In this document: positions 48,698 through 58,381 of the stretch, piece after piece
How the letters are laid out: the number at the start of each line of letters is the position of its first letter
Position numbering within the stretch: position 1 is the stretch's first letter
Assembly (NCBI GenBank): GCA_036275055.1
Contig: DASUEN010000170.1
Coordinates: 8,118-72,117 of the forward strand
From: Thermoanaerobaculia bacterium
GTDB lineage: Bacteria > Acidobacteriota > Thermoanaerobaculia > Multivoradales > UBA5704
DNA: 64,000 nt
Direction of reading: 5' to 3'
Translations under genes and position numbers: made by a program
The notes under the pieces: generated by a model
Databases searched by the model: none
Seen by the model: the letters and a program-made list of their open reading frames with translations, nothing else
Told to the model about the DNA's origin: nothing

Positions 48698-49851
48698 CAG
48701 CGGTCGACCTCCCCGAGCACGATGTCGGTGGTGCCGATGATCGCCACGAGGTCGGCGATCAACGCCCCCTTGCACAGCTCGGGGACGGATTGCAGGTTGA
48801 CGAACGACGGCGGACGCACGTGGCAGCGGTAGGGATTCGGCGTGCCGTCGCCCACGATGTAGAAGCCGATCTCCCCCTTGGGGCCTTCGATGCCGTGATA
48901 GACCTCGGCGTCCTTGCCGGCCTTCATCACGCGCGGCCGCTTGGCCATGATCGGCCCCTCGGGGAGCTTGTCCAGGCACTGCTTCAGGATGCGGTTGGCC
49001 TGCCGCATCTCCTCCATGCGCACGAGATAACGGTCGTAGGTGTCGCCGTTCTTACCCAGGGGCACGTCGAACTCCACCTCGGGATACGCCTCGTAGGGCA
49101 TGGCCTTGCGGATGTCCCACGAGATGCCGCTGCCGCGCAGCATGGGGCCGGTGATGCCGTAGTCGATCGCCGTCTCCGGATCGAGCACGCCCACGCCCAC
49201 CGTGCGCTTCTTCCAGATGCGGTTCTCGGTGAGGAGCCCCTCGTACTCGTCGATGCGCGGCAGGAAGCCGTCCACGAACTCGCGGCACTTCTCCGTCCAG
49301 CCCACGGGGAGGTCGTGCGGCTGGCCGCCGGGACGCATGCAGTTGAGCGTCAGCCGGGCGCCGCAGTACTGCTCGAAGAGGTCGAGGATCAGCTCGCGCT
49401 CGCGGAAGGTGTAGAAGAACGGCGTCATGGCGCCGATGTCGATGGCATGGGTGGCGAGCCACAGCAGATGCGACGAGATGCGCTGCAGCTCCGCCAGCAT
49501 CGTCCGGATGTAGCGCGCCCGCGGCGGCACCACCAGCCCCATCAGCTTCTCCACCGCCCCCACGTAGGCGAGGTTGTTGGTCGCCGCCGCCACGTAGTCC
49601 ATGCGGTCGGTGTGGGGGATGTTCTGGAAGTAGGGGTGGAGCTCGAACAGCTTCTCCGTGCCGCGGTGGAGGTAGCCGATGATCGGGTAACAATCGATGA
49701 TCCGCTCCCCGTCCACCCGCAGCTTGAGGCGCAGCACGCCGTGCGTCGACGGGTGCTGGGGGCCGAAGTTCAGCTCCATCTCCTCGGAACGGTTGAGGAG
49801 GTTGTCGCCGAGCGACGGATCGTCGAAAGGCTGGACGAAGGGCTCGCTCAT
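48697..49851 (-). CDS. nuoD: NADH-quinone oxidoreductase subunit D
   Basis: ..NFGPQHPSTHGVLRL.., ..IIGTTDIVLGEVDR C-terminus. Confidence 0.92.
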   Translation of the reverse strand: MSEPFVQPFDDPSLGDNLLNRSEEMELNFGPQHPSTHGVLRLKLRVDGERIIDCYPIIGYLHRGTEKLFELHPYFQNIPHTDRMDYVAAATNNLAYVGAVEKLMGLVVPPRARYIRTMLAELQRISSHLLWLATHAIDIGAMTPFFYTFRERELILDLFEQYCGARLTLNCMRPGGQPHDLPVGWTEKCREFVDGFLPRIDEYEGLLTENRIWKKRTVGVGVLDPETAIDYGITGPMLRGSGISWDIRKAMPYEAYPEVEFDVPLGKNGDTYDRYLVRMEEMRQANRILKQCLDKLPEGPIMAKRPRVMKAGKDAEVYHGIEGPKGEIGFYIVGDGTPNPYRCHVRPPSFVNLQSVPELCKGALIADLVAIIGTTDIVLGEVDR

Positions 49852-50846
49852 GACGGCTTCTCCGATGTCGGCGGGGCCGGTTCCGCGGGCGGTTTCGCCG
49901 GCTTCCAGCCGGTGCCGGTGCCGGCGACGGGGCCTGCCGTCTCCTCGTAATACTCGGGATAGATCGCCGAGCCCGTGTCGATCCCCTCGACGGGGAAGTC
50001 CTTGCGCAGCGGGTAGCCGTTGAACCCTTCCCAGAGGAGAATGCGGGTCATGTCCGGATGGCCGGCGAAGCGCACGCCGTACATGTCGTAGACCTCACGC
50101 TCCGACCAGTTCGCCGCGCGCCACACCCCGCAGACCGTGGGGACGGGAGACTCCTCATCCGTGACCACCCGCAGCCGGATGCGGCGGTTCGTCTCGAAGG
50201 TGTGGAGGTGGTAAACGACGTCGAAGCGCGGCGTGCGCTTCGGGTAGTCGGCGCCGCAGACGTCGATCAGATAGGTGAACCCGTGCTTCGTCTTCAAGGA
50301 GGCGGCGACCTCGGCCAAGGCGTTGCGCTGGATCTGGAGGGTGAGGTCGCCGGCGAAGGTGCGGGCGGACTCGATCTTCTCCCCGAACTCCTCTTTGAGC
50401 GCCGCGGCCAGGGGATCGTCCCCGGCGTCCTTCCAATCGGGGACGATAGGGTCCCGCTCCCAGAGCGGCTTGTTCTCGTCCTCGGCCGGCTTCGGCTTGG
50501 CGGCTGCGGGAGCGGCGGCTCCGGCGGCAGGAGCCGGCTGGCCCGCGGCGGCAGCGGCGGCTTTCGCGGCGGCGGCAGCCTTCGCCTTCTCCAGGGCCGC
50601 GGCCTTGGCGGCAGCTTTCGCCTCGGCATCCGAGGCCGGGGCGGGAGCGGCGGCTGGAGCGGCCGGTTGCTGCACGTCGCCCACGGCGGCTTCCGAGCCC
50701 GCAGCGGTCACCGCGGTATCCGTCTTGGCCTCGGCGACCTCGCGGGCCTTCTGGGCTTCCTCGGTGGGAGCCGCGGCCTCGGCGGGAGCCGCAGGCTGCG
50801 CGGGATCGGGTCCTCCTCCCGCAGGCTTCTCCGGCTCGTCGCTCAT
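49848..50846 (-). CDS. nuoC: NADH-quinone oxidoreductase subunit C with about 150-aa Ala/Pro/Lys-rich N-terminal extension
   Basis: C-terminal 180 aa match the NuoC pattern (..FDVVYHL....N.RIRLRV.., ..[22 protein letters not shown]..). The N-terminus is low complexity. Confidence 0.85.
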
Positions 50847-51702: not shown

Positions 51703-51867
51703 GGTAGACCGCCTTCACCTCCGTAGATACGACTTGGGGACTCCCCTTTCGCGTGACGCGGCGTATTCTTACCCGGGGGCTGGGGGGTGTGTCAAGGAAG
51801 GGGAACCCCGGGGACCCGATCTCCACCAGGGCTGGAGGGTTCCGCCAGCAACGCCGTACCCGAGAGA

Positions 51868-52202
51868 CCGTAGAGACGACACAGGCCGTAACGATATCCG
51901 TTCCTCTACCACGGGGACGGCGGGTCGTCTCCGGGGCGGGCTGGGACGTTTCGAACCCCTCCAACCGGGGACGGGGCGCCGAACGTCGTCCCACCGTCAA
52001 CCGGGGCGTTCCGCATGCACGTCATCCAAATCGTGGGATAGGGCATTCCGCACCTTCGCGGGAACCCCTAGAGGATAGTAAGGGTCGTCCTCGTGCCGCC
52101 GCTACGCCAGGGTGAGGCCGGCCTGTTCCTCCGATCCGGAGACGACCCGCCGTCCCCGTGGTAGAGGAGAGGATATCGTTACGGCCTGTGTCGTCTCTAC
52201 GG
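51868..52202. repeat. MITE-like element: 67-bp terminal inverted repeats flanking a 201-bp core
   Basis: 51868-51934 ccgtagagacgacacaggccgtaacgatatccgttcctctaccacggggacggcgggtcgtctccgg matches the reverse complement of 52136-52202 except for about 3 mismatches. Confidence 0.85.
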
Positions 52203-52326
52203 ACACGGTGTCGATGGGCTCTGCGGTGGCGAGTCTACGGATCGTCCTCGAGCTCCAATTCGTCCGGCAGGTCCTCCAGATAGGGAATCCTCGCAGCTCG
52301 TCCAGAGAGAAGGGGCAATACAACGC

Positions 52327-52809
52327 TCATTCTTCTTCAGCAAGGATTTCAAAAGCTTCCGCAAACGAGACGCTTCGGGTTTCGCGTAATTCGTTCACAA
52401 CCTCGAACGCTCGAAATAGTGCGGCCTTTCCGGCAGGCACCCACTTCCCTGTTGCCCAATCCTCCTGTACCTCAAGGGCGCCAGCACGGCACTCCACGAA
52501 ACGGAGTTTCCCTTCTCGGTAGTCTTTACCGGGCCTTTCGCGGGCCAGTCGAAGCACCTCTTCAGCCTTCAAATCTAATGCCGCGAGAAAAAATGCGTCA
52601 GGATGGAAAGAATGCAGATCAAAACCGAGCCCCAAGAGCTTAATCGCATTGGGCCGTATATACTTAAGAAGGTCTCGAGAGATTTCTTCCCCTATCCCTC
52701 GCTCTACAGATGCGAAAGGGTGAGGAATACCCCGAGGTGTGTAGCCTTCCTGCTTCGCCTCCTCCGGCAATTCATCCGTCTCAATTCGGTTGACTCTCAC
52801 GAATGGCAT
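52327..52809 (-). CDS. hypothetical protein (160 aa), translationally coupled partner of the TIR gene
   Basis: ATG at 52809 lies 13 nt inside the end of the TIR ORF. Low GC. No family recognised. Confidence 0.6.
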   Translation of the reverse strand: MPFVRVNRIETDELPEEAKQEGYTPRGIPHPFASVERGIGEEISRDLLKYIRPNAIKLLGLGFDLHSFHPDAFFLAALDLKAEEVLRLARERPGKDYREGKLRFVECRAGALEVQEDWATGKWVPAGKAALFRAFEVVNELRETRSVSFAEAFEILAEEE

Positions 52810-53813
52810 AATACTCTCAACATTTCGTCCAAATAGCGGTTTATGTTTTCGGCCACCGACGATGTCAGGAGCTTAGGAACGGCAGAGATCCTGCTGCTTC
52901 GCGCTTGATACCCGCAGAAGCCATCGCTCGTCAATATTGTAGTGGCCGTATCCAGGATATTTGACAGCTTAGAACCTCGGACTGAACCCTCGTCAACAAT
53001 CTTCGAAAGACTCAGGTACTCCTCACAGGCTTCGAGAAGCCCCGGCTCACCGACCAACTCCCTAAATGCTGCGTTCAAGCCCTCGAAGTCAAACCAACTC
53101 ACTGGGCCAAGTCTTAACTCGATCGAATAACGTTCCAGAGTGCTATCGACTCCGGACATTGGATTCTCTCTCCAATCTAAAAGCCTGACGTTTGGTCCGT
53201 TGAAAAACACAGCGCCACGCGCCTTGGTCTCGGCTTCCTTTTTGGCGAGAATTTTTTTCATGTGGCCATAGAGCGCAACGGGTGGGTTGAACGGATCGTT
53301 ATCGTAAACTATTTGCACTCGCGAGATATTGTAGAATCTATCGCCGGCTCCGACGAGCCGGATCTCTGGAATATCACGAAACAAGCTATTGCTGGCAAAA
53401 TTCTCGACCGAACCCATTTTGTCATATTCTCTGGCTCTTGAAACAAAGAGCATTCTTGCCGCTTCGTTCTTCAGCTCTGCAAGATTTTGCAGATATTTAA
53501 GATGGCCAACCGGAGCTGGAGGCTTCAGATTGAGTTCGGCAAGCAGGCACCAGATCTCGCGCCTCAATGCCCATGCTATTCCAAGCTCAAATAGTACCCA
53601 CTCTGACTTCAAGCTCTCACGAGAGACAATGACTACAAGATGGGTCGCGCTTCTGACTAACTCTCGAAGTGCCTCTGAGACTGCCTGGCCAGGCACCATA
53701 TTCAGCTCATCCATAAGCACACGAAGACCGACAGCCTCCAGGCATTCTCGTACTTCCTTTGCAAATATGGCGTCCTTGCGTGAATAGCTCAAGAGAAACA
53801 ATGGGGCAGCCAT
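52797..53813 (-). CDS. TIR-domain protein with unassigned 200-aa C-terminal domain
   Basis: LFLLSYSRKDAIFAKEVRECLEAVGLRVLMDELNMVPGQ..THLVVIVSRESLKSEWVLFELGIAWAL... Low GC. Confidence 0.75.
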   Translation of the reverse strand: MAAPLFLLSYSRKDAIFAKEVRECLEAVGLRVLMDELNMVPGQAVSEALRELVRSATHLVVIVSRESLKSEWVLFELGIAWALRREIWCLLAELNLKPPAPVGHLKYLQNLAELKNEAARMLFVSRAREYDKMGSVENFASNSLFRDIPEIRLVGAGDRFYNISRVQIVYDNDPFNPPVALYGHMKKILAKKEAETKARGAVFFNGPNVRLLDWRENPMSGVDSTLERYSIELRLGPVSWFDFEGLNAAFRELVGEPGLLEACEEYLSLSKIVDEGSVRGSKLSNILDTATTILTSDGFCGYQARSSRISAVPKLLTSSVAENINRYLDEMLRVLCHS

Positions 53814-53829
53814 CTTGGATCGTACCTCT

Positions 53830-54081
53830 CTATAGTCCAGGCACGTCGTGATTTCTCGACAAACCGCCGACGGTCAAGCCCCAGTTCGCCTGCCAAGATT
53901 GCGAGCCCGATTCGGCGATGTCGCCCGACACGGCTACGAGATCTATGCGGGAGCCCTTGGCGAAGGTCCCCCTGGCGGCTCCGAGATCCTTGAAGAAGGC
54001 CTTTCCCAGTTTGGTGAGGTCCTCGCCCTTGAAGCGACTGTGGGCGCCGAAGTGGAGGTCGGAGAGATGGAGGATGAGCAT
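53830..54081 (-). pseudogene. truncated, frameshifted duplicate of the 5' end of the metallophosphoesterase::TIR gene
   Basis: MLILHLSDLHFGAHSRFKGEDLTKLGKAFFKDLGAARGTFAKGSRIDLVAVSGD.. matches the first residues of 56458..58332. ..LAGELGLDRRRFV.. continues in another frame. Homology ends just after the GNHD codons at about 53838. Confidence 0.85.
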
Positions 54082-54229
54082 GCGGTACCCCGGGTCTTGG
54101 TTCGTGTCTCAGTCCGTTCGCAGACCATTCTATCCTGGACTTTGGGAGGGGCGACTGCTGAGGTCGGCGCCTGCGTGGCCAGCGGAGTGTCGTCTCGTGG
54201 TACTCTCTAAGTGGAAGGAGATCGTGCCG

Positions 54230-54466
54230 ATGAATGACCAAGTCGTGATCCGGGTCGTGCAGTTCCAGGAGGGTGGATGGCTCGTCGCACAGTGTCTGGA
54301 GGTAGACATTGCTGCCCAGGGCAAGACGGAGAGCGACCTCCACTACCAGTTGGGCCGCCTGCTGGTGGGGCGGATCCTGGCGAGCGAGATGCTTGGAGTC
54401 GAGCCCTTCGCTACCCTGCCTCCTGCGCCGAAGCGGTATTGGGACATGTACACCGGGGCAGGATAA
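54230..54466 (+). CDS. small protein, tentatively HicB-like antitoxin fold
   Basis: GGAAGGAG RBS. MNDQVVIRVVQFQEGGWLVAQCLEVDIAAQGKTESDLHYQL.. Confidence 0.4.
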   Translation: MNDQVVIRVVQFQEGGWLVAQCLEVDIAAQGKTESDLHYQLGRLLVGRILASEMLGVEPFATLPPAPKRYWDMYTGAG

Positions 54467-54513
54467 GGGGGCTGGTACTATACTGGCTTGGGTAGGCACC
54501 ATCTGGAGGCGGT

Positions 54514-54762
54514 ATGGCTAGAACCAGAGAAGCACAGGTTTTGCTGGAATCCGAGGAGTACGAATGGTTGGAAGCCATTGCGGCTCAACGCCGGACCTCC
54601 GTCTCGGACTTGATTCGCGAAGCCGTTCGGGACCGGTATCTCTCACTCGCCGAACAGCGTAAGAGAGCCTTCGAGGCAATCTGTCAGATCCACATTCCGA
54701 TCCCAGATTGGGACACACTGGAAAAGGAGATCGCAGAAGCCCATGACAGCGATCTTCCTTGA
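54514..54762 (+). CDS. ribbon-helix-helix antitoxin (VapB-like)
   Basis: ..EYEWLEAIAAQRRTSVSDLIREAVRDRYL... Its end overlaps the start of a PIN-like ORF. Confidence 0.65.
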   Translation: MARTREAQVLLESEEYEWLEAIAAQRRTSVSDLIREAVRDRYLSLAEQRKRAFEAICQIHIPIPDWDTLEKEIAEAHDSDLP

Positions 54763-54841
54763 CGCGAACGTCTTTTTCTATGCGGTCGGGGCTGATCATC
54801 CTCTGCGCGACGCAAGCCAGCAAGTTCTGCGCCGTGCATGA
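54743..54841 (+). pseudogene. truncated PIN-domain (VapC-like) toxin, 32 codons only
   Basis: MTAIFLDANVFFYAVGADHPLRDASQQVLRRA* is the N-terminal PIN strand with its acidic residue, then a stop. Confidence 0.65.
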
Positions 54842-54883
54842 CCATCCGAGGACGTTGAGTTGACCACTCGCCGGAGGAGCCGA

Positions 54884-55045
54884 ATGTCCACATCGCCACG
54901 CCTGAGCCTCGAAGAGCGGCTCCGCCTGTTCGACGAGGCCACGGAGCGACAGCAGGCACGGGAGGCGGGCAGACCCCCGGTGGACAGGGTGACGGAGCGG
55001 GATTGGCGGCGGGAGGATCTCTATATCCGTAGCAGCTCTCGTTGA
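54884..55045 (+). CDS. small hypothetical protein (possible orphan antitoxin fragment)
   Basis: GGAGGAG RBS. MSTSPRLSLEERLRLFDEATERQQAREAGRPPVDRVTERDWRREDLYIRSSSR. Confidence 0.3.
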   Translation: MSTSPRLSLEERLRLFDEATERQQAREAGRPPVDRVTERDWRREDLYIRSSSR

Positions 55046-55275
55046 CTGCCCCGAAGGGGCAAAGGCATGTAGCCTGGGCGGACGCGAAGCGCTGAGCCCC
55101 GGGAAAAGCCGATCCATCCATCCGTTAAAGCCCTGAAAGGGCGACGGCAGCTCATCGTTCGACAGGACTGCCGCCGCCCCTTCGGGGCTTTAGGGGTTTG
55201 TTGGGCCACATCTACCCGGGGCTGGCAAAAGGCGCCAGCCCCGGGCTACATGCCGTCGCCCCTTCGGGGCTGGCG
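55046..55275. repeat. cluster of REP-like palindromic units (GCCCCTTCGGGGC hairpins with GGGCTACATGCC arms)
   Basis: 55046-55078 is an inverted copy of 55238-55270. A third partial unit lies at 55168-55188. The family resembles the 15241..15382 palindrome. Confidence 0.75.
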
Positions 55276-55334
55276 CAACAGCGCCTTTCTATTTTGTCTC
55301 AGAGCTCGGTGAGAGTCCTCCACGCCGATCTCCG

Positions 55335-55600
55335 AGCCCCTCTTGCCAAACTCCAGATCCTCCAGATCGATCTCCAGGTTGTCCTGGAGGGAGGTCTGGA
55401 GCTTCCAGACCTCGGCGTAGATCCTCCACAGCAAGCTCCAGGTCTTCCTGATCAAGGTCTGGACCCTCTGGACCCTGATGCGGGTCCTCCAGACCTCGGT
55501 CTGGGTCGTCCGCAGCAATCTCCCGGTCATCTGCAGCGAGGTCTGGATCCTCGAGAGCAAGGTCCAAGGCTTCTGGAGCAAGGTCTGGACCGCTTGGAAT
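55335..55600. repeat. degenerate 42-bp tandem repeat (about 5-6 units) built around GGTCTGGA/TCCAGACC
   Basis: GGTCTGGA-like cores at 55456, 55498, 55540 and 55582 (42-bp spacing), plus 55393. On the minus strand this encodes 14-aa repeats (V/I)QT(L/S)L.K.W.LL.R. Confidence 0.75.
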
Positions 55601-55820
55601 TCGATTCAGATTATCTGGCCGGTCTTCGCCAGCACAGAACGACCGAGAGCGAGAATCCCGGCGGAGATCAGCACTTTCCAGATATCCTCTGAGGAGGCTT
55701 TCTCCGCCAGCGGGGAAGGCTGCGGGTTTTGATACGGTCCGCTGCCCGCGTAATAGGTCAAAATCATACAAGGGACCGTCTCTCGCGTCCAGACCTGAAG
55801 CTCATGATCGTGCAGACTGA

Positions 55821-55917
55821 TGGCGGAGAGGGCGGGATTCGAACCCACGCGGCGACTTCGAAAGCCGCCGGCTTCCGGGTAGCAACCGGACACTTTGCCA
55901 GGCTCAGTCACCTCTCC
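55821..55917 (-). tRNA. tRNA-Ser (anticodon GCU), class II, 3'-CCA encoded
   Basis: Acceptor GGAGAGG/CCTCTCC. Anticodon arm TCCGG-TTGCTAC-CCGGA. Long variable arm. T arm GTGGG-TTCGAAT-CCCGC. Confidence 0.88.
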
Positions 55918-55918
55918 A

Positions 55919-55995
55919 TGGTGGCTCCGGTGGGATTCGAACCCACACGGGACGGGTTTTGAAGCCGATGCCTCTGCCGGTTGGGCTACGGAGCC
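55919..55995 (-). tRNA. tRNA of uncertain identity: class-I shape, best-fit anticodon CAA, imperfect anticodon stem, CCA encoded
   Basis: Acceptor GGCTCCG/CGGAGCC-A-CCA. D arm GCCCAACCGGCAGAGGC. T arm GTGGG-TTCGAAT-CCCAC. Anticodon region TCGGC-TTCAAAA-CCCGT forms only 3 central base pairs. Confidence 0.55.
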
Positions 55996-55998
55996 AGG

Positions 55999-56077
55999 TG
56001 GTGCCCCTCCTCGGATTCGAACCGAGAACCTCCGGTTTCTGAGACCGGCGCCTCTGCCAAGATTGGGCTAGAAGGGC
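55999..56077 (-). tRNA. tRNA with Leu anticodon CAG but a 5-nt variable loop (class-I shape), CCA encoded
   Basis: Acceptor GCCCTTC/GAGGGGC-A-CCA. D arm GCCCAATCTTGGCAGAGGC. Anticodon arm CCGGT-CTCAGAA-ACCGG (perfect). Variable loop AGGTT. T arm CTCGG-TTCGAAT-CCGAG. Confidence 0.7.
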
Positions 56078-56132
56078 GTGGTTGGTGGGAGTGGAATACG
56101 CTCCCTTTGGCAAAGAACCAAAACGTGAACGA

Positions 56133-56225
56133 TGGCGGAGGGTGAAGGAGTCGAACCCTCGCCGAGGATCACCCGGCGCCCCGGTTTTCGGGACCGGTTG
56201 CCGCACCATCGCAGCGGCACCCTCC
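56133..56225 (-). tRNA. tRNA-Ser-like (anticodon CGA) with Sec/allo-tRNA-like 8/4 architecture, CCA encoded
   Basis: 8-bp acceptor GGAGGGTG/CACCCTCC. 2-nt linker. 6-bp D stem GCTGCG/TGCGGC with 4-nt loop ATGG. Anticodon arm CCGGT-CCCGAAA-ACCGG (C at position 33). 7-bp variable stem. 4-bp T stem AGGG/CCTT. Confidence 0.7.
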
Positions 56226-56252
56226 GGTACTCTCCGGTACTCTCCAGAATGC

Positions 56253-56288
56253 AAAAAGCCCCCGCGGCTCATCACCGGGGGGCTTTTT
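56253..56288 (-). terminator. rho-independent terminator (bidirectional form) downstream of the metallophosphoesterase::TIR gene
   Basis: AAAAAGCCCCC-gcggctcatcacc-GGGGGGCTTTTT. Confidence 0.7.
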
Positions 56289-56457
56289 GGCGTATAAGCT
56301 GATGGCTCTTCAGGTTACACGTCAATCCCCCTGGCGGTGGCCAGCGAAAGGTAGTAACTTGAAGAGAGTCGCAAGCAGCGCATAGCGAAGTCAGTAAACC
56401 ATGTCGAAGCGCGGATGTCAAGAGGGATTTCGATTCTCTTCGCCGGCAGAGGCCGTT

Positions 56458-58332
56458 TCATGTGAGACCTGCCGCCATCCGCCGCCGTAGGGCTTCCCGG
56501 ACAACCTGGAAGTCATCGTCGAGATAGACCTCGAGCTTGCGGGGCATGAGAACGTCCTGAAGGAAGACGAGAATGTCGTCCACGTGATTGGCAAAATCTT
56601 GGACCAGTTTAAACTCCTTCCAGGACTCGGAGCTGGGCTGGAGATTCGGATTGCGGATCAGGACTCCGAGCTTCACCGCTCGCTCGGACCAGTATTCCAG
56701 GTAGGGCGCCCTTTCCTCGAAGCTTCCGGTCTTCACTTCCGGCAGCATGATTGGCACCAGACGCTGGACCAGGTCGTCGGCTTCGCCCTGGCAGCTCTGC
56801 CAGAGCTTGTAGATCTCGTACATGCAGTAGGAAGATCGGAGGTACTTATTGCTGATCACAGCCACGATGTGATCAGCGTGGGTGAGGCGGCGGATGAATG
56901 CCGAGATCTGCTCCCCGGGGAGGATCTGGTCGCGGTCTCGGACGGGGAGGAAGCCGTCCGCGACGAGAGCCGCACAGAGACCCTCGACGGCCTGCGCACG
57001 GATCCTGCCCTCGGGAGTCTCGTCATCTCCCCAGGCATAGGAGATGAAGACCTCTCGGGGCTTCTCGGGGGGCTTCTCGCCCGGGGTGGGGGCAAGGGGG
57101 GTAGTGCCAGGCTCGGAGGTTTTCCCGGTCGCGCGGGTTTCTGCGGGGCGGTGCTCCCGGCCATCGAAGAAAGTGGCGAAGGCTGCGGCGGGGACCGGCT
57201 TCTCGAGGTCGAGCACGCGGCCGTCGCTTCCCGGTGGCAGGTAAAGGGAAAGCTCCTGCCAATACCCACCCGGCTCCATGGGATCAGGAATGAACGCTCC
57301 ATGTCGCAGCTCACCTTTGGCTCTGGCGCGTGGATCGAAGACAAGGCTCCGGGCGCGGATTTCTTTCTCCCTGGTGTCCAGTGCGATGAGACGCACGGAA
57401 AGCGGCTCGTCTTCGGGTAAATTGTCTGGCGTCAGGCTGAGGCTTCCTGCGGAGAGCACCGCCGCGCGACCCTTGATTCTGCTCTGCCAGTCCCAGCTCT
57501 GCTCGTCTTTGGCATGATGGTGGCCATGAAGGATGAGCTGAACGTGCGAGTCCTCGACGATCGCCCGCAGGCGCTCCTGCCCCTCGAAACCCACAATGTC
57601 GCTCTCATACCGCGCGACCAGCTCCGGGTCCAGCCCCTTCTCCTCCATCTCCTTCCGCCACTTTGCAAGGTTCCCGGGCACGGTGACTCCGGGATTGTGG
57701 TGGACAGTCACGATCTTCAGCCATCCGGATCTCTGCGGGGTCAGCCATTCCGTCATCAACGCTTCGGCCTGTTCGCGGCTCAGGAAACCGACGTGATCGG
57801 CCGGGCGGTGCGACTCCTTCTCGCACGAATTCAGTGCAGCCACGGAGAGGTGGAGATCCGGAAAGTCGTACAGGAAGGCTCCCCGGCCCAAGGGGAGGGC
57901 CACCTCGGCGAGGTCCTTCACGCCGTAGAAGCTGAGGAGGAACTCCTCGTAACGATCCAGTTTCACGGCGTCGAGCCGTTTCCGGAGCTCGGCCTCGTCA
58001 AAGCCCTCCTCTTCCTGATCGGCTGCAACCTTCTTGCAGGCGGACCAGGAGACGTCGTGATTGCCGGGCACGAATACGAACCGCCGGCGGTCGAGCCCAA
58101 GCTCTCCTGCCAGAGCGGCGAGGAACAGCTCCCCTTCCTGGAGCTCCGGAGGCTTGCCGGATTCGGACACGTCGCCGGTCACGGCCACCAGATCGATGCG
58201 GGAGCCCTTGGCGAAGCCCCCCCTTGCCGCTTCGAGATCCTTGAAAAAGGCCTTCCCCAGCTTCGTGAGGTCCTCTCCCTGCAAGGGGCTGTGTGCGCCG
58301 AAGTGAAGGTCGGAGAGATGCAGGATGAGCAT
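56458..58332 (-). CDS. calcineurin-like metallophosphoesterase fused to a C-terminal TIR domain
   Basis: MPE motifs LHLSDLHFG, VTGDVSESG, VPGNHDVSW, VHHNP, LHGHHHAKD. TIR: REVFISYAWGDDE..HIVAVISNKYLRSSYCMYEIYKLWQ. Confidence 0.8.
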   Translation of the reverse strand: MLILHLSDLHFGAHSPLQGEDLTKLGKAFFKDLEAARGGFAKGSRIDLVAVTGDVSESGKPPELQEGELFLAALAGELGLDRRRFVFVPGNHDVSWSACKKVAADQEEEGFDEAELRKRLDAVKLDRYEEFLLSFYGVKDLAEVALPLGRGAFLYDFPDLHLSVAALNSCEKESHRPADHVGFLSREQAEALMTEWLTPQRSGWLKIVTVHHNPGVTVPGNLAKWRKEMEEKGLDPELVARYESDIVGFEGQERLRAIVEDSHVQLILHGHHHAKDEQSWDWQSRIKGRAAVLSAGSLSLTPDNLPEDEPLSVRLIALDTREKEIRARSLVFDPRARAKGELRHGAFIPDPMEPGGYWQELSLYLPPGSDGRVLDLEKPVPAAAFATFFDGREHRPAETRATGKTSEPGTTPLAPTPGEKPPEKPREVFISYAWGDDETPEGRIRAQAVEGLCAALVADGFLPVRDRDQILPGEQISAFIRRLTHADHIVAVISNKYLRSSYCMYEIYKLWQSCQGEADDLVQRLVPIMLPEVKTGSFEERAPYLEYWSERAVKLGVLIRNPNLQPSSESWKEFKLVQDFANHVDDILVFLQDVLMPRKLEVYLDDDFQVVREALRRRMAAGLT

Positions 58333-58381
58333 GTGGTACCCCTGAGTCGGTATGTCTTTTCCAGCCCGTTAGGAGATCATT

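Follow-up and report, generated by a model that had tools for sequence, protein, structure and literature searches.

Layout of the locus

We analyse here a 64,000-nucleotide (64-kb) stretch of bacterial DNA, to which we refer as the window, and within it two overlapping open reading frames (ORFs) on the reverse strand at positions 52327-53813. An earlier reading of the letters alone, which we call the sequence-only reading, had described this segment as a low-GC cassette of two genes, one for a protein with an N-terminal TIR domain and the other for a partner of unknown family. Both ORFs, and their overlap of 13 nt, are found where that reading had placed them. The features of the segment are listed below, where L001 is the contig that carries the nearest homologue (protein P0002), and where positions in the family refer to a hidden Markov model (HMM) of the module that follows the TIR domain.

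52797..53813 (-): ORF1, 338 amino acids (aa)
52327..52809 (-): ORF2, 160 aa, overlapping ORF1 by 13 nt
52327..53813 (-): the whole disrupted gene, of low GC, encoding a TIR domain and a predicted NUDT22-like Nudix module; about 495 aa after frame repair, from collinear alignment with L001 and with homologues of 496-502 aa
53487..53795 (-): TIR domain (Pfam TIR_2), ORF1 residues 7-109, with the putative catalytic Glu76 in WVLFELG
52824..53432 (-): predicted NUDT22-like module, part 1, ORF1 residues ~128-330, family HMM positions 42-249; from hhalign against NUDT22, AlphaFold2 (AF2) and Foldseek
52845..52862 (-): SSVAEN strand, first half of the Nudix-box equivalent (E322 100% and N323 94% conserved in the family)
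52822..52826 (-): frameshift site, with 2 surplus nt relative to L001 (GACG[AA]ATG against GACG--ACG)
52327..52821 (-): predicted NUDT22-like module, part 2, consisting of ORF2 and four open upstream codons in the -1 frame; family HMM positions 261-410 on the stop-to-stop frame 52330-52872; P0002 spans the junction
52678..52719 (-): PFASVERGIGEEIS, the Nudix-helix equivalent RGxxEE (conserved in the family: R 99%, G 98%, first E 85%, second E 100%, S 95%)

The base composition of the segment sets it apart from its surroundings, as the sequence-only reading had noticed. The GC content of its 1,487 bp is 0.507, compared with a mean of 0.653±0.044 over windows of the same size (z = -3.3), and no other 1.5-kb stretch of the 64 kb is as low. 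At third codon positions the GC content (GC3) is 0.50-0.54 in ORF1 and ORF2, as against 0.78-0.95 in the adjoining genes. The copy on L001 is likewise a low-GC insert within high-GC DNA, and the DNA common to the window and L001 consists of the gene plus some 12 nt upstream of its ATG; nothing that the two share past that point could represent the flank of a mobile element. Thus the gene is foreign in composition and was horizontally acquired, and, since the two copies share only the gene and those 12 nt and both are low-GC inserts, the unit of transfer appears to have been the single gene.

A single gene interrupted by a frameshift

The segment 52327-53813 (-) is, we are nearly certain, one gene and not two. 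When ORF2 is searched against 5.8 billion proteins, its sole homologue is P0002 (73% identity), a protein of 223 aa that begins within the match to the C-terminus of ORF1 and runs continuously into the match to ORF2 (...LLTSSVAENINRYLDDVEATLPLRRINRVEGDELPWEAKQEGY...). On the L001 contig a 272-aa TIR ORF lies ahead of P0002 and in frame with it, and all that separates the two is a TAA that falls at a Ser codon of the window. That is, the nearest homologue is uninterrupted at the junction seen in the window, yet has an in-frame stop of its own elsewhere. A query with the repaired C-terminal region yields seven more distant homologues of 496-502 aa (P0004-7, P0009, P0013 and P0015) at 90-98% coverage, each a single ORF, and at most of the approximately 28 distinct loci a single ORF spans the domain. 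What had seemed a partner of unknown family is thus the last 160 aa of one and the same protein.

The lesion is located by aligning the DNA of the gene with that of L001: all indels are multiples of three, save for a surplus of 2 nt at about 52824-52825. At this site the window reads GACGAAATG; a form with the frame intact would be of the GACGAATG type or the GACGATG type. Beyond the frameshift ORF1 continues for eight out-of-frame residues (MLRVLCHS) and then stops, and the frame of ORF2 is open from 52872. A frameshift had indeed been suspected by the sequence-only reading, at 52797-52812; it exists, but 12-28 nt upstream, and the suspected interval is merely the overlap of the two ORFs.

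The frameshift separates the AEN strand, in ORF1, from the RGxxEE helix, in ORF2, cutting the presumed active site, and the domain HMM is split across two frames at ~52824 rather than matching one uninterrupted frame. ORF1 retains E227, D297, R305, E322, N323 and D329, and ORF2 retains R37, G38, E41, E42, S44 and E99. Since the key residues and fold elements are divided in this way, neither half is a complete fold, and ORF1 and ORF2 are probably the halves of a pseudogene rather than partners.

The same domain has been disrupted independently at four of the ~28 loci, namely in the window, in L001, in the population represented by L027, L033 and L034, and in L035, and the sites of disruption vary by lineage (HMM positions ~250, 189, 304 and 120). 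The loci L027, L033 and L034 are one population drawn from three samples, 99.6-99.9% identical and with an identical frameshift. This frameshift (L027 595-749, and likewise in L033 and L034) lies just past the Nudix helix, so that a second lineage has a persisting split copy.

One might suppose that the split arrangement is functional as it stands, either with ORF1 and ORF2 made separately and then assembling, or with a programmed -1 frameshift that fuses them. ORF2 has its own ATG, with GAGAG 4-5 nt upstream; its 13-nt overlap with ORF1 is of the kind seen in translationally coupled genes; and the second lineage persists in split form across three samples. Against these features, the break interrupts the fold itself, with the AEN strand on one side and the catalytic helix on the other; its position differs from lineage to lineage; most homologues are single ORFs; and ORF2 has no stand-alone homologue, its only match being the read-through protein P0002. 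As for a programmed frameshift, there is no slippery heptamer of the form X XXY YYZ at GAC GAA ATG, and, with the break positions varying between lineages, we reject it. We regard a functional two-gene or recoded system as extremely unlikely.

It is also conceivable that the frameshift is an artefact of sequencing or assembly, in which case the organism would have an intact, functional TIR-NUDT22-like gene. The indel is small and stands beside a short run of A (GAAAT), the contig is apparently of metagenome type, the longest one measuring 88,246 bp, and the ratio of nonsynonymous to synonymous substitution rates (dN/dS) indicates that purifying selection acted on the entire frame until recently. 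This ratio, computed for the window copy and that of L001, is 0.07-0.15 in all four segments of the gene, including those downstream of both lesions, with dS saturated. On the other hand, the run comprises only three A's and the difference is of 2 nt. The long housekeeping ORFs of the window are unbroken, for instance those of nuoA-D and two others with 1090 and 963 aa, which indicates that the assembly is not prone to indels. The gene remnant that adjoins the segment carries genuine deletions of 34 nt and 8 nt, so the islet around the gene is decaying. Finally, other copies bear lesions of their own, as exemplified by the TAA substitution in L001 and by the identical frameshift recovered from three samples. 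An artefact is quite unlikely in our view, and the lesion is very probably biological. Because dN/dS is low in every segment while dS is saturated, the full-length frame must have been kept for nearly all of the divergence between the copies, and each lesion is recent. The local copy is most likely a horizontally acquired gene that was recently inactivated.

The TIR domain

The identity of the N-terminal domain is straightforward. Residues 7-109 of ORF1 match the Pfam family TIR_2 (PF13676) with an E-value of 1.2e-17 and 65 bits, against a cut-off of 28 bits, and E76 in WVLFELG aligns with an invariant Glu in all nine of the TIR-bearing homologues aligned; the conserved Glu context reported by the sequence-only reading is therefore upheld. 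A PDB sequence search with the TIR part finds TLR1, TIR-STING and AbTIR, and Foldseek matches the same part to the TIR domains of SARM1 and SPARTA. The ThsB and SAVED-TIR models of PADLOC match the TIR part of ORF1 only. The domain thus carries a Glu of the catalytic type, from which cleavage of NAD+ is predicted.

A module that resembles human NUDT22

The approximately 380 aa that follow the TIR domain are predicted, with a confidence that we consider high, to form a two-domain Nudix fold like that of human NUDT22. Part 1 of this module comprises an N-terminal beta domain (FFNGPNVRL, LGPVSWFDFEGLN) together with the opening strands of the Nudix fold, up to SSVAEN / NRYLDE; part 2 contains the Nudix helix and the remainder of the fold.

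The evidence comes from predicted structures and from profile comparison. The AF2 model of the repaired window protein has a predicted local distance difference test score (pLDDT) of 89.1 and a predicted template modelling score (pTM) of 0.76; for the intact homologue P0004 the values are 85.6 and 0.71. When the window model is compared with the PDB by Foldseek, the top six matches are human NUDT22 (E 2.4e-15 to 2.8e-14; template modelling score on the target 0.71-0.75), with 331-347 aligned columns over whole chains of 282-301 residues. The window and P0004 models behave alike, for in both NUDT22 takes the first six places (E 2.4e-15 to 8e-13; 330-347 columns), with TIR domains next. Generic Nudix proteins rank lower: the MutT/Nudix protein of R. 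rubrum (3dup) is found at 7.8e-5, and viral ADP-ribose pyrophosphatases at ~1e-3. In an hhalign comparison, the TIR-less family profile aligns with NUDT22 (a sequence 100% identical to PDB 5lor_A) at 90.6% probability and an E-value of 1.3e-6, over 251 columns and NUDT22 residues 16-269. This alignment extends over the N-terminal domain, in which FFDGPNTRL is paired with LFDAPKFRL and LGPVGWYDY with LGLTSYRDF, and over the Nudix domain as well.

The sequence-only reading had noted a faint resemblance to a Nudix-type fold running across the two ORFs, in SSVAEN (ORF1, 52845-52862) and VERGIGEEI (ORF2, within 52678-52719), with the wrong spacing for a canonical box. Both motifs are present, and the resemblance is borne out, since the structure prediction, Foldseek and hhalign all point to a NUDT22-like fold, in which AEN is separated from RGxxEE by ~45 residues. 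The in-silico fusion that it had proposed to examine by Foldseek and profile methods, that is, the repaired window protein, has human NUDT22 as its top match.

In the family as a whole the box equivalent consists of a strand S-x-V-A-E-N, then 28-45 residues (~45 in the subgroup of the window, ~28 in some members), and then a helix P-F-A-A-V-x-R-G-x-x-E-E-x-S. Over 131 near-full-length members, in the numbering of P0008, residues R224, E241 and E294 are conserved in 100%, D216 and R289 in 99%, and E146, D248, G290 and E351 in 98%. An overlapping alignment set (A4) holds at least nine members fused to a helix-turn-helix (HTH) domain.

Sequence databases are silent on the module. Searches of Pfam, NCBIfam, PADLOC and PDB sequences with the C-terminus of ORF1 (last 220 residues), with ORF2 and with the repaired 381-aa region give no match outside the TIR domain. 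A PDB profile match to TtpB1 (E 0.46), a diketopiperazine cytochrome P450, is attributed to chance, and we discarded the weak matches that ORF2 gave with de novo designed proteins and with an RNA methyltransferase.

A family with exchangeable partners

An exhaustive HMM search with the TIR-less family alignment, over protein clusters at 50% identity, finds 409 cluster representatives at E <= 1e-3, of which 200 are at E <= 1e-30. The module is without a model in Pfam (2025), PADLOC (2023) and NCBIfam (June 2026). A Pfam scan of 97 members likewise gives no match on the module itself, and it identifies the following N-terminal partner domains.

TIR_2: 30 of 97
XRE-type HTH: at least 9 of 97
dCMP/cytidine deaminase: 3 of 97
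CHAT: 3 of 97
CAP12/Pycsar-type TIR: 2 of 97
PNP_UDP_1: 2 of 97
LuxR (GerE): 2 of 97
OmpR-type HTH (Trans_reg_C): 2 of 97
EAD7: 2 of 97
EAD11, bDLD1, NTase-conflict, HD-CE, SEFIR and DUF676: 1 of 97 each

Several architectures are composite, namely HD-CE with deaminase, TIR with deaminase, CHAT with TIR, TIR with TIR, and the module with bDLD1 (P0043). The proteins P0008, P0010, P0012 and P0014 have a hydrophobic N-terminal anchor only, and others, of 348-376 aa, are almost without extension. The range of fusions, to TIR, deaminase, CHAT, PNP, HD, HTH, transmembrane, EAD and Death-like parts, marks the module as a component of conflict systems, and a role of the family in conflict is, judging from these architectures, quite probable.

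The family is sporadic. Among 185,579 species-representative genomes it occurs in two, a Terriglobia metagenome-assembled genome (MAG) and a Streptomyces. A search of BFVD gives no NUDT22-like match, and neither there nor in IMG/VR contigs did we find a phage origin.

The neighbourhoods of homologues, which the sequence-only reading had suggested analysing, offer a mixed picture: genes for restriction-modification (R-M), HNH, NACHT/DUF4062 and TPR-S proteins occur at some loci, but a conserved partner does not emerge. Type I R-M genes lie near the family gene in L008. An HNH gene follows the family gene in L002 and, weakly, in L006, and not in the other loci examined.

Two of the neighbourhoods are described here in their own right. 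In a Terriglobia MAG (L011 7749-14252; PSRJ01000196), the gene for a 446-aa HTH-NUDT22-like protein is followed by two paralogous nucleoside-2-deoxyribosyltransferase-like genes and by one for a DUF4062-NACHT-FGE-sulfatase STAND protein, and the region may be a multi-gene conflict locus. In Streptomyces sp. NPDC059900 (L012 5635-10148), a 649-aa TPR-S ('sensor' TPR) protein is encoded directly before the TIR-NUDT22-like gene, which is followed, on the opposite strand, by genes for a 351-aa TIR-like protein and a TnpB-type transposase.

Conflict systems with TIR fusions, or with Nudix components, are already known kinds. In the searchable literature we found no paper on a TIR-Nudix protein, nor a description of a NUDT22-type module as a recurrent effector partner, a possible mention being in Burroughs et al. 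2015 (NAR).

Function of the intact protein

The explanation that we favour, and consider probable rather than secure, is that the segment is a foreign TIR plus NUDT22-like gene broken by a frameshift, and that the intact protein would be a single-chain conflict protein with a hydrolase module. Catalytic activity, substrate and defence role, together with the biological nature of the frameshift, are what we infer in this explanation. The analysis itself establishes that there is one gene, where its frame is broken, which folds it encodes, how large the family is and with which domains the module is combined, and that the composition is foreign. That the module is an active hydrolase is a likely prediction from its conserved residues. 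The family combines a constant NUDT22-like module with exchangeable partner domains that would mostly act on nucleotides. Upon activation, the TIR domain would cleave NAD+. The Nudix module, as a metal-dependent pyrophosphatase of nucleoside diphosphates linked to a further group X (NDP-X), would then hydrolyse a molecule of the nucleotide-diphosphate-sugar type. The most plausible substrates would be ADP-ribose (ADPR) or an ADPR derivative made by the TIR domain, or else UDP-sugars as for NUDT22. The outcome would be a deeper or irreversible depletion of metabolites.

It is important to disentangle this role of a co-effector enzyme from that of a sensor. Under the alternative, the gene is the same frameshifted gene, but its module serves mainly as a ligand sensor or regulator of the N-terminal effector (here a TIR NADase), binding, and perhaps slowly hydrolysing, an NDP-X signal or an infection metabolite. 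Parallels would be the SAVED, SLOG, STING and cyclic-nucleotide (cNMP)-binding domains, or the ADPR-sensing Nudix domain of NrtR. It is consistent with this alternative that the C-terminal module is constant while the N-terminal outputs vary (TIR, transmembrane, deaminase, CHAT, PNP, HD, esterase, HTH), that a stand-alone TIR protein needs a sensing part and the module is its only other domain, that no conserved partner gene was found, and that the HTH fusions (L011) resemble ligand-controlled regulators. Moreover, Nudix domains have been described as ADPr sensors (PMC9503650), and the 2TM-NUDIX protein, a Nudix component in a SMODS/CBASS-associated system, offers a precedent (PMC9226505).

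Several features of the family nevertheless argue against the sensor. In all architectures the acidic and Arg residues are kept as a complete set, with 98-100% conservation. Sensor Nudix domains, as known from NrtR, are usually degenerate at these positions. In the EAD7 fusions, and in P0043 where bDLD1 is the sole partner, the module occupies the slot of a recruited effector; the members that are only 348-376 aa long, with hardly any extension at the N-terminus, have the look of autonomous enzymes; and no signal-producing enzyme consistently adjoins the gene. We consider a sensor to be possible but not probable.

We rank the co-effector enzyme slightly above the sensor or regulator. The co-effector is favoured by the invariant E, D and R residues in every architecture, the HTH fusions included, and by the predominance of partners that metabolise nucleotides (TIR, deaminase, HD and PNP). 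It is favoured as well by the forms that consist of the module only or of the module with a Death-like or EAD domain, since EAD7 and bDLD are described as recruiters of effectors (PMC7159879), and by precedents such as that of CAAD (CARF-adenosine deaminase), which is paired with a Nudix hydrolase that processes its product (PMC12993439), and that of 2TM-NUDIX (PMC9226505), in both of which a Nudix domain accompanies a defence enzyme that targets nucleotides. A rationale for a partner that destroys ADPR is provided by NARP1, with which phages rebuild NAD+ from ADPR (bioRxiv 10.1101/2024.02.11.579819).

A third possibility is that the NUDT22-like family belongs to ordinary metabolism, for instance the turnover of UDP-sugars as in human NUDT22, and is unrelated to conflict systems. 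The closest solved structure is, after all, that of a UDP-glucose hydrolase of pyrimidine salvage (PMC10101856), and some loci have housekeeping neighbours only (L010). However, the partners are overwhelmingly of the conflict type (TIR, CAP12-type TIR, SEFIR, CHAT, deaminases, EADs, bDLD1, NTase-conflict), the distribution is sporadic (two of the 185,579 species genomes), the composition is foreign, and inactivation is frequent. A purely metabolic family is, in our estimation, very unlikely.

The following points weigh against the explanation that we favour. With regard to the fold, NUDT22 is not significant in a HMMER profile search of the PDB (E = 2.3), although the equivalent strands are aligned; the canonical Nudix box GX5EX7REUXEEXGU is missing, the first Glu of REx2EE being a Gly; and Pfam NUDIX has no match at E<=10 on the repaired region. 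With regard to function, one module kept constant behind a range of interchangeable N-terminal effectors is the arrangement classically seen with sensor domains and not with co-effectors; and for the CHAT, transmembrane and HTH fusions no chemical link with a Nudix reaction is obvious. With regard to context, there is no relative among IMG/VR viral contigs and only the two species genomes carry the family, and no conserved partner gene appears in an all-versus-all BLASTP comparison of the neighbours in L002, L005, L006 and L012 or in a tBLASTn comparison with the window. Lastly, the frameshift may be an assembly error.

A bolder version of the favoured explanation can be put forward only tentatively, as we think it rather unlikely in full. 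In it, the NUDT22-like module would define a class of prokaryotic immune proteins that is undescribed yet widespread, with 409 or more clusters at 50% identity, and whose members are single chains centred on nucleotides; the module may also be the bacterial source of animal NUDT22, and the Nudix part of the TIR-NUDT22-like protein would destroy ADP-ribose or TIR-made ADPR signals, so that NAD+ depletion becomes irreversible and resistant to ADPR-based reconstitution of NAD+ by phages (NARP1).

Two overlapping 'hypothetical' genes thus prove to be one broken gene, whose break conceals a recognisable fold. Should the module, which is of the rare NUDT22 type, be active, immunity by depletion of NAD+ and nucleotides would acquire a pyrophosphatase step, and human NUDT22, whose physiological role is still being worked out, would gain a relative in prokaryotic immune systems, as have cGAS, STING, TIR and gasdermin. 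The local copy is probably dead, and its value is that of a pointer to the family rather than of a working system.

The islet around the gene

The gene lies inside a small, decaying variable islet of 6.7 kb (51703-58381), with nuoA-D on one side and genes for Methyltransf_28, PfkB and SecF on the other. Its other main features are the following.

53830..54137 (-): decayed duplicate of the promoter and first ~103 codons of a metallophosphoesterase-TIR gene, with frame-breaking deletions of 34 nt and 8 nt; homology ends at ~53843
56458..58332 (-): intact 624-aa metallophosphoesterase-TIR gene, the source paralogue of the remnant (Pfam Metallophos 2.5e-14, TIR_2 2.5e-12)
55821..56225 (-): four tRNA genes (Ser-gct, Leu-caa, Leu-cag, Ser-cga), inside the islet

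The remnant contains an 83-aa ORF (53830..54081) and is 82% identical over 236 nt to the 5' end and promoter of the intact gene. The sequence-only reading had a truncated metallophosphoesterase copy adjoining the TIR gene at about 53838, close to the end of homology found here, and took the junction for replacement of an effector cassette. That junction, however, is situated ahead of the start codon of the TIR gene and not within a TIR domain common to both, and the layout is explained at least equally well if the foreign gene was inserted into a decaying duplicate or next to one.

The product of the intact gene has an N-terminal calcineurin-like metallophosphoesterase domain and a C-terminal TIR domain. 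It matches the NCBIfam model of the DS9_1 anti-phage phosphoesterase (NF053862) at 2e-29, far below the cut-off, and PDC-S60 of PADLOC; the gene may be an uncharacterised defence gene, as a candidate from these matches.

Other elements of the islet are recorded as side observations. A ribbon-helix-helix (CopG-type) antitoxin-like orphan gene of 82 aa stands at 54514-54762 (+) with no recognisable toxin ORF beside it, which again points to decay of the islet. A pair of 72-nt inverted repeats (51868-51939 and 52131-52202; 94-97% complementary, 191 nt apart) is located in the intergenic DNA that separates nuoA from the 3' end of the broken gene; it has no further copy in the window and could be an element like a miniature inverted-repeat transposable element (MITE) or a large hairpin. 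Nested palindromic repeats with arms of the GCCCCGAAGGGGC type occupy 55048-55271, and within them Rfam matches the Acido-Lenti-1 RNA at 55215-55271 (+) with 39.6 bits against a gathering score of 37 bits, which suggests a host among the Acidobacteriota (or Lentisphaerota). At 55420-55598 there are six imperfect direct repeats with a period of 21 nt (62-79% identity), inside overlapping ORFs on both strands that match nothing in Pfam; the repeats could specify a heptad-repeat (coiled-coil) peptide, or else be non-coding. The long-armed tRNA-Ser(cga) at 56133-56225 (-) scores 41.1 bits with the Rfam tRNA-Sec model, below the threshold of 47 bits, and is most likely a plain class II tRNA. Outside the islet, the NuoC homologue (30-kDa subunit; 49848-50846, -) has a low-complexity N-terminal extension of 170 residues, rich in Ala, Pro and Glu, before the Complex1_30kDa domain, with GC up to 0.77.

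Comparison with known systems

The gene shares with bacterial single-chain TIR effectors (TIR-SAVED, TIR-STING, NADases of the AbTIR type and ThsB of Thoeris) a TIR_2 domain with a Glu of the catalytic type. Its partner domain, in contrast, is a predicted NUDT22-like Nudix module and not SAVED, STING, APAZ or SLOG, and there is no ThsA, CD-NTase or Argonaute gene nearby in the window. Membership in Thoeris is not indicated, as the ThsB models match the TIR part only and 51703-58381 contains no ThsA-like (SIR2/TM-SLOG/Macro) gene.

The 2TM-NUDIX effector of SMODS/CBASS systems resembles the family in joining an N-terminal membrane or effector part to a C-terminal Nudix part that is exchangeable between defence systems (PMC9226505, PMC7159879), and the layout is mimicked by the membrane-anchored members P0008, P0010, P0012 and P0014. 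That protein is described as having a NUDIX hydrolase domain, whereas the module of the family is predicted to be of the two-domain NUDT22 type and escapes Pfam NUDIX. A CBASS-type locus is not indicated either, for there is no CD-NTase/SMODS cyclase in the window or in L002, L005, L006, L008, L010, L011 or L012.

The pairing of CAAD with a Nudix hydrolase in type III CRISPR systems is paralleled in the family by fusions of TIR, deaminase and NUDT22-like module and of HD, deaminase and NUDT22-like module. There, however, the components are separate genes, under the control of cyclic oligoadenylates (cOA) and in CRISPR loci, whereas in the family they are parts of one chain, with neither CARF nor a CRISPR context. 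Regulators of the NrtR type, which join a Nudix domain to an HTH and sense ADPR, resemble the HTH-fused members (such as the 446-aa protein of L011) in combining DNA binding with a Nudix-type module. The family differs from them in that its HTH is N-terminal (the order is reversed), its NUDT22-like module has fully conserved acidic residues, and its genes have no context of a NAD-metabolism operon.

The closest comparison is with human NUDT22 itself (PDB 5lf9, 5lor, 5lou), which hydrolyses UDP-glucose and UDP-galactose and is used in pyrimidine salvage (PMC10101856), and which is reported to stand apart from the other human NUDIX proteins as an outlier that lacks a conventional box (PMC5688067). 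Like the bacterial family, NUDT22 has an N-terminal beta domain and a Nudix fold with a non-canonical box that is interrupted by an insert. Identity is only 15-19%, however. The bacterial box is AEN...RGxxEE, with the canonical Arg kept, and that of NUDT22 is GGHPE...QEICDE; the insert is longer (~45 aa) in the subgroup of the window; and, whereas NUDT22 is a stand-alone protein, the bacterial module is fused to TIR and to many other effector domains.

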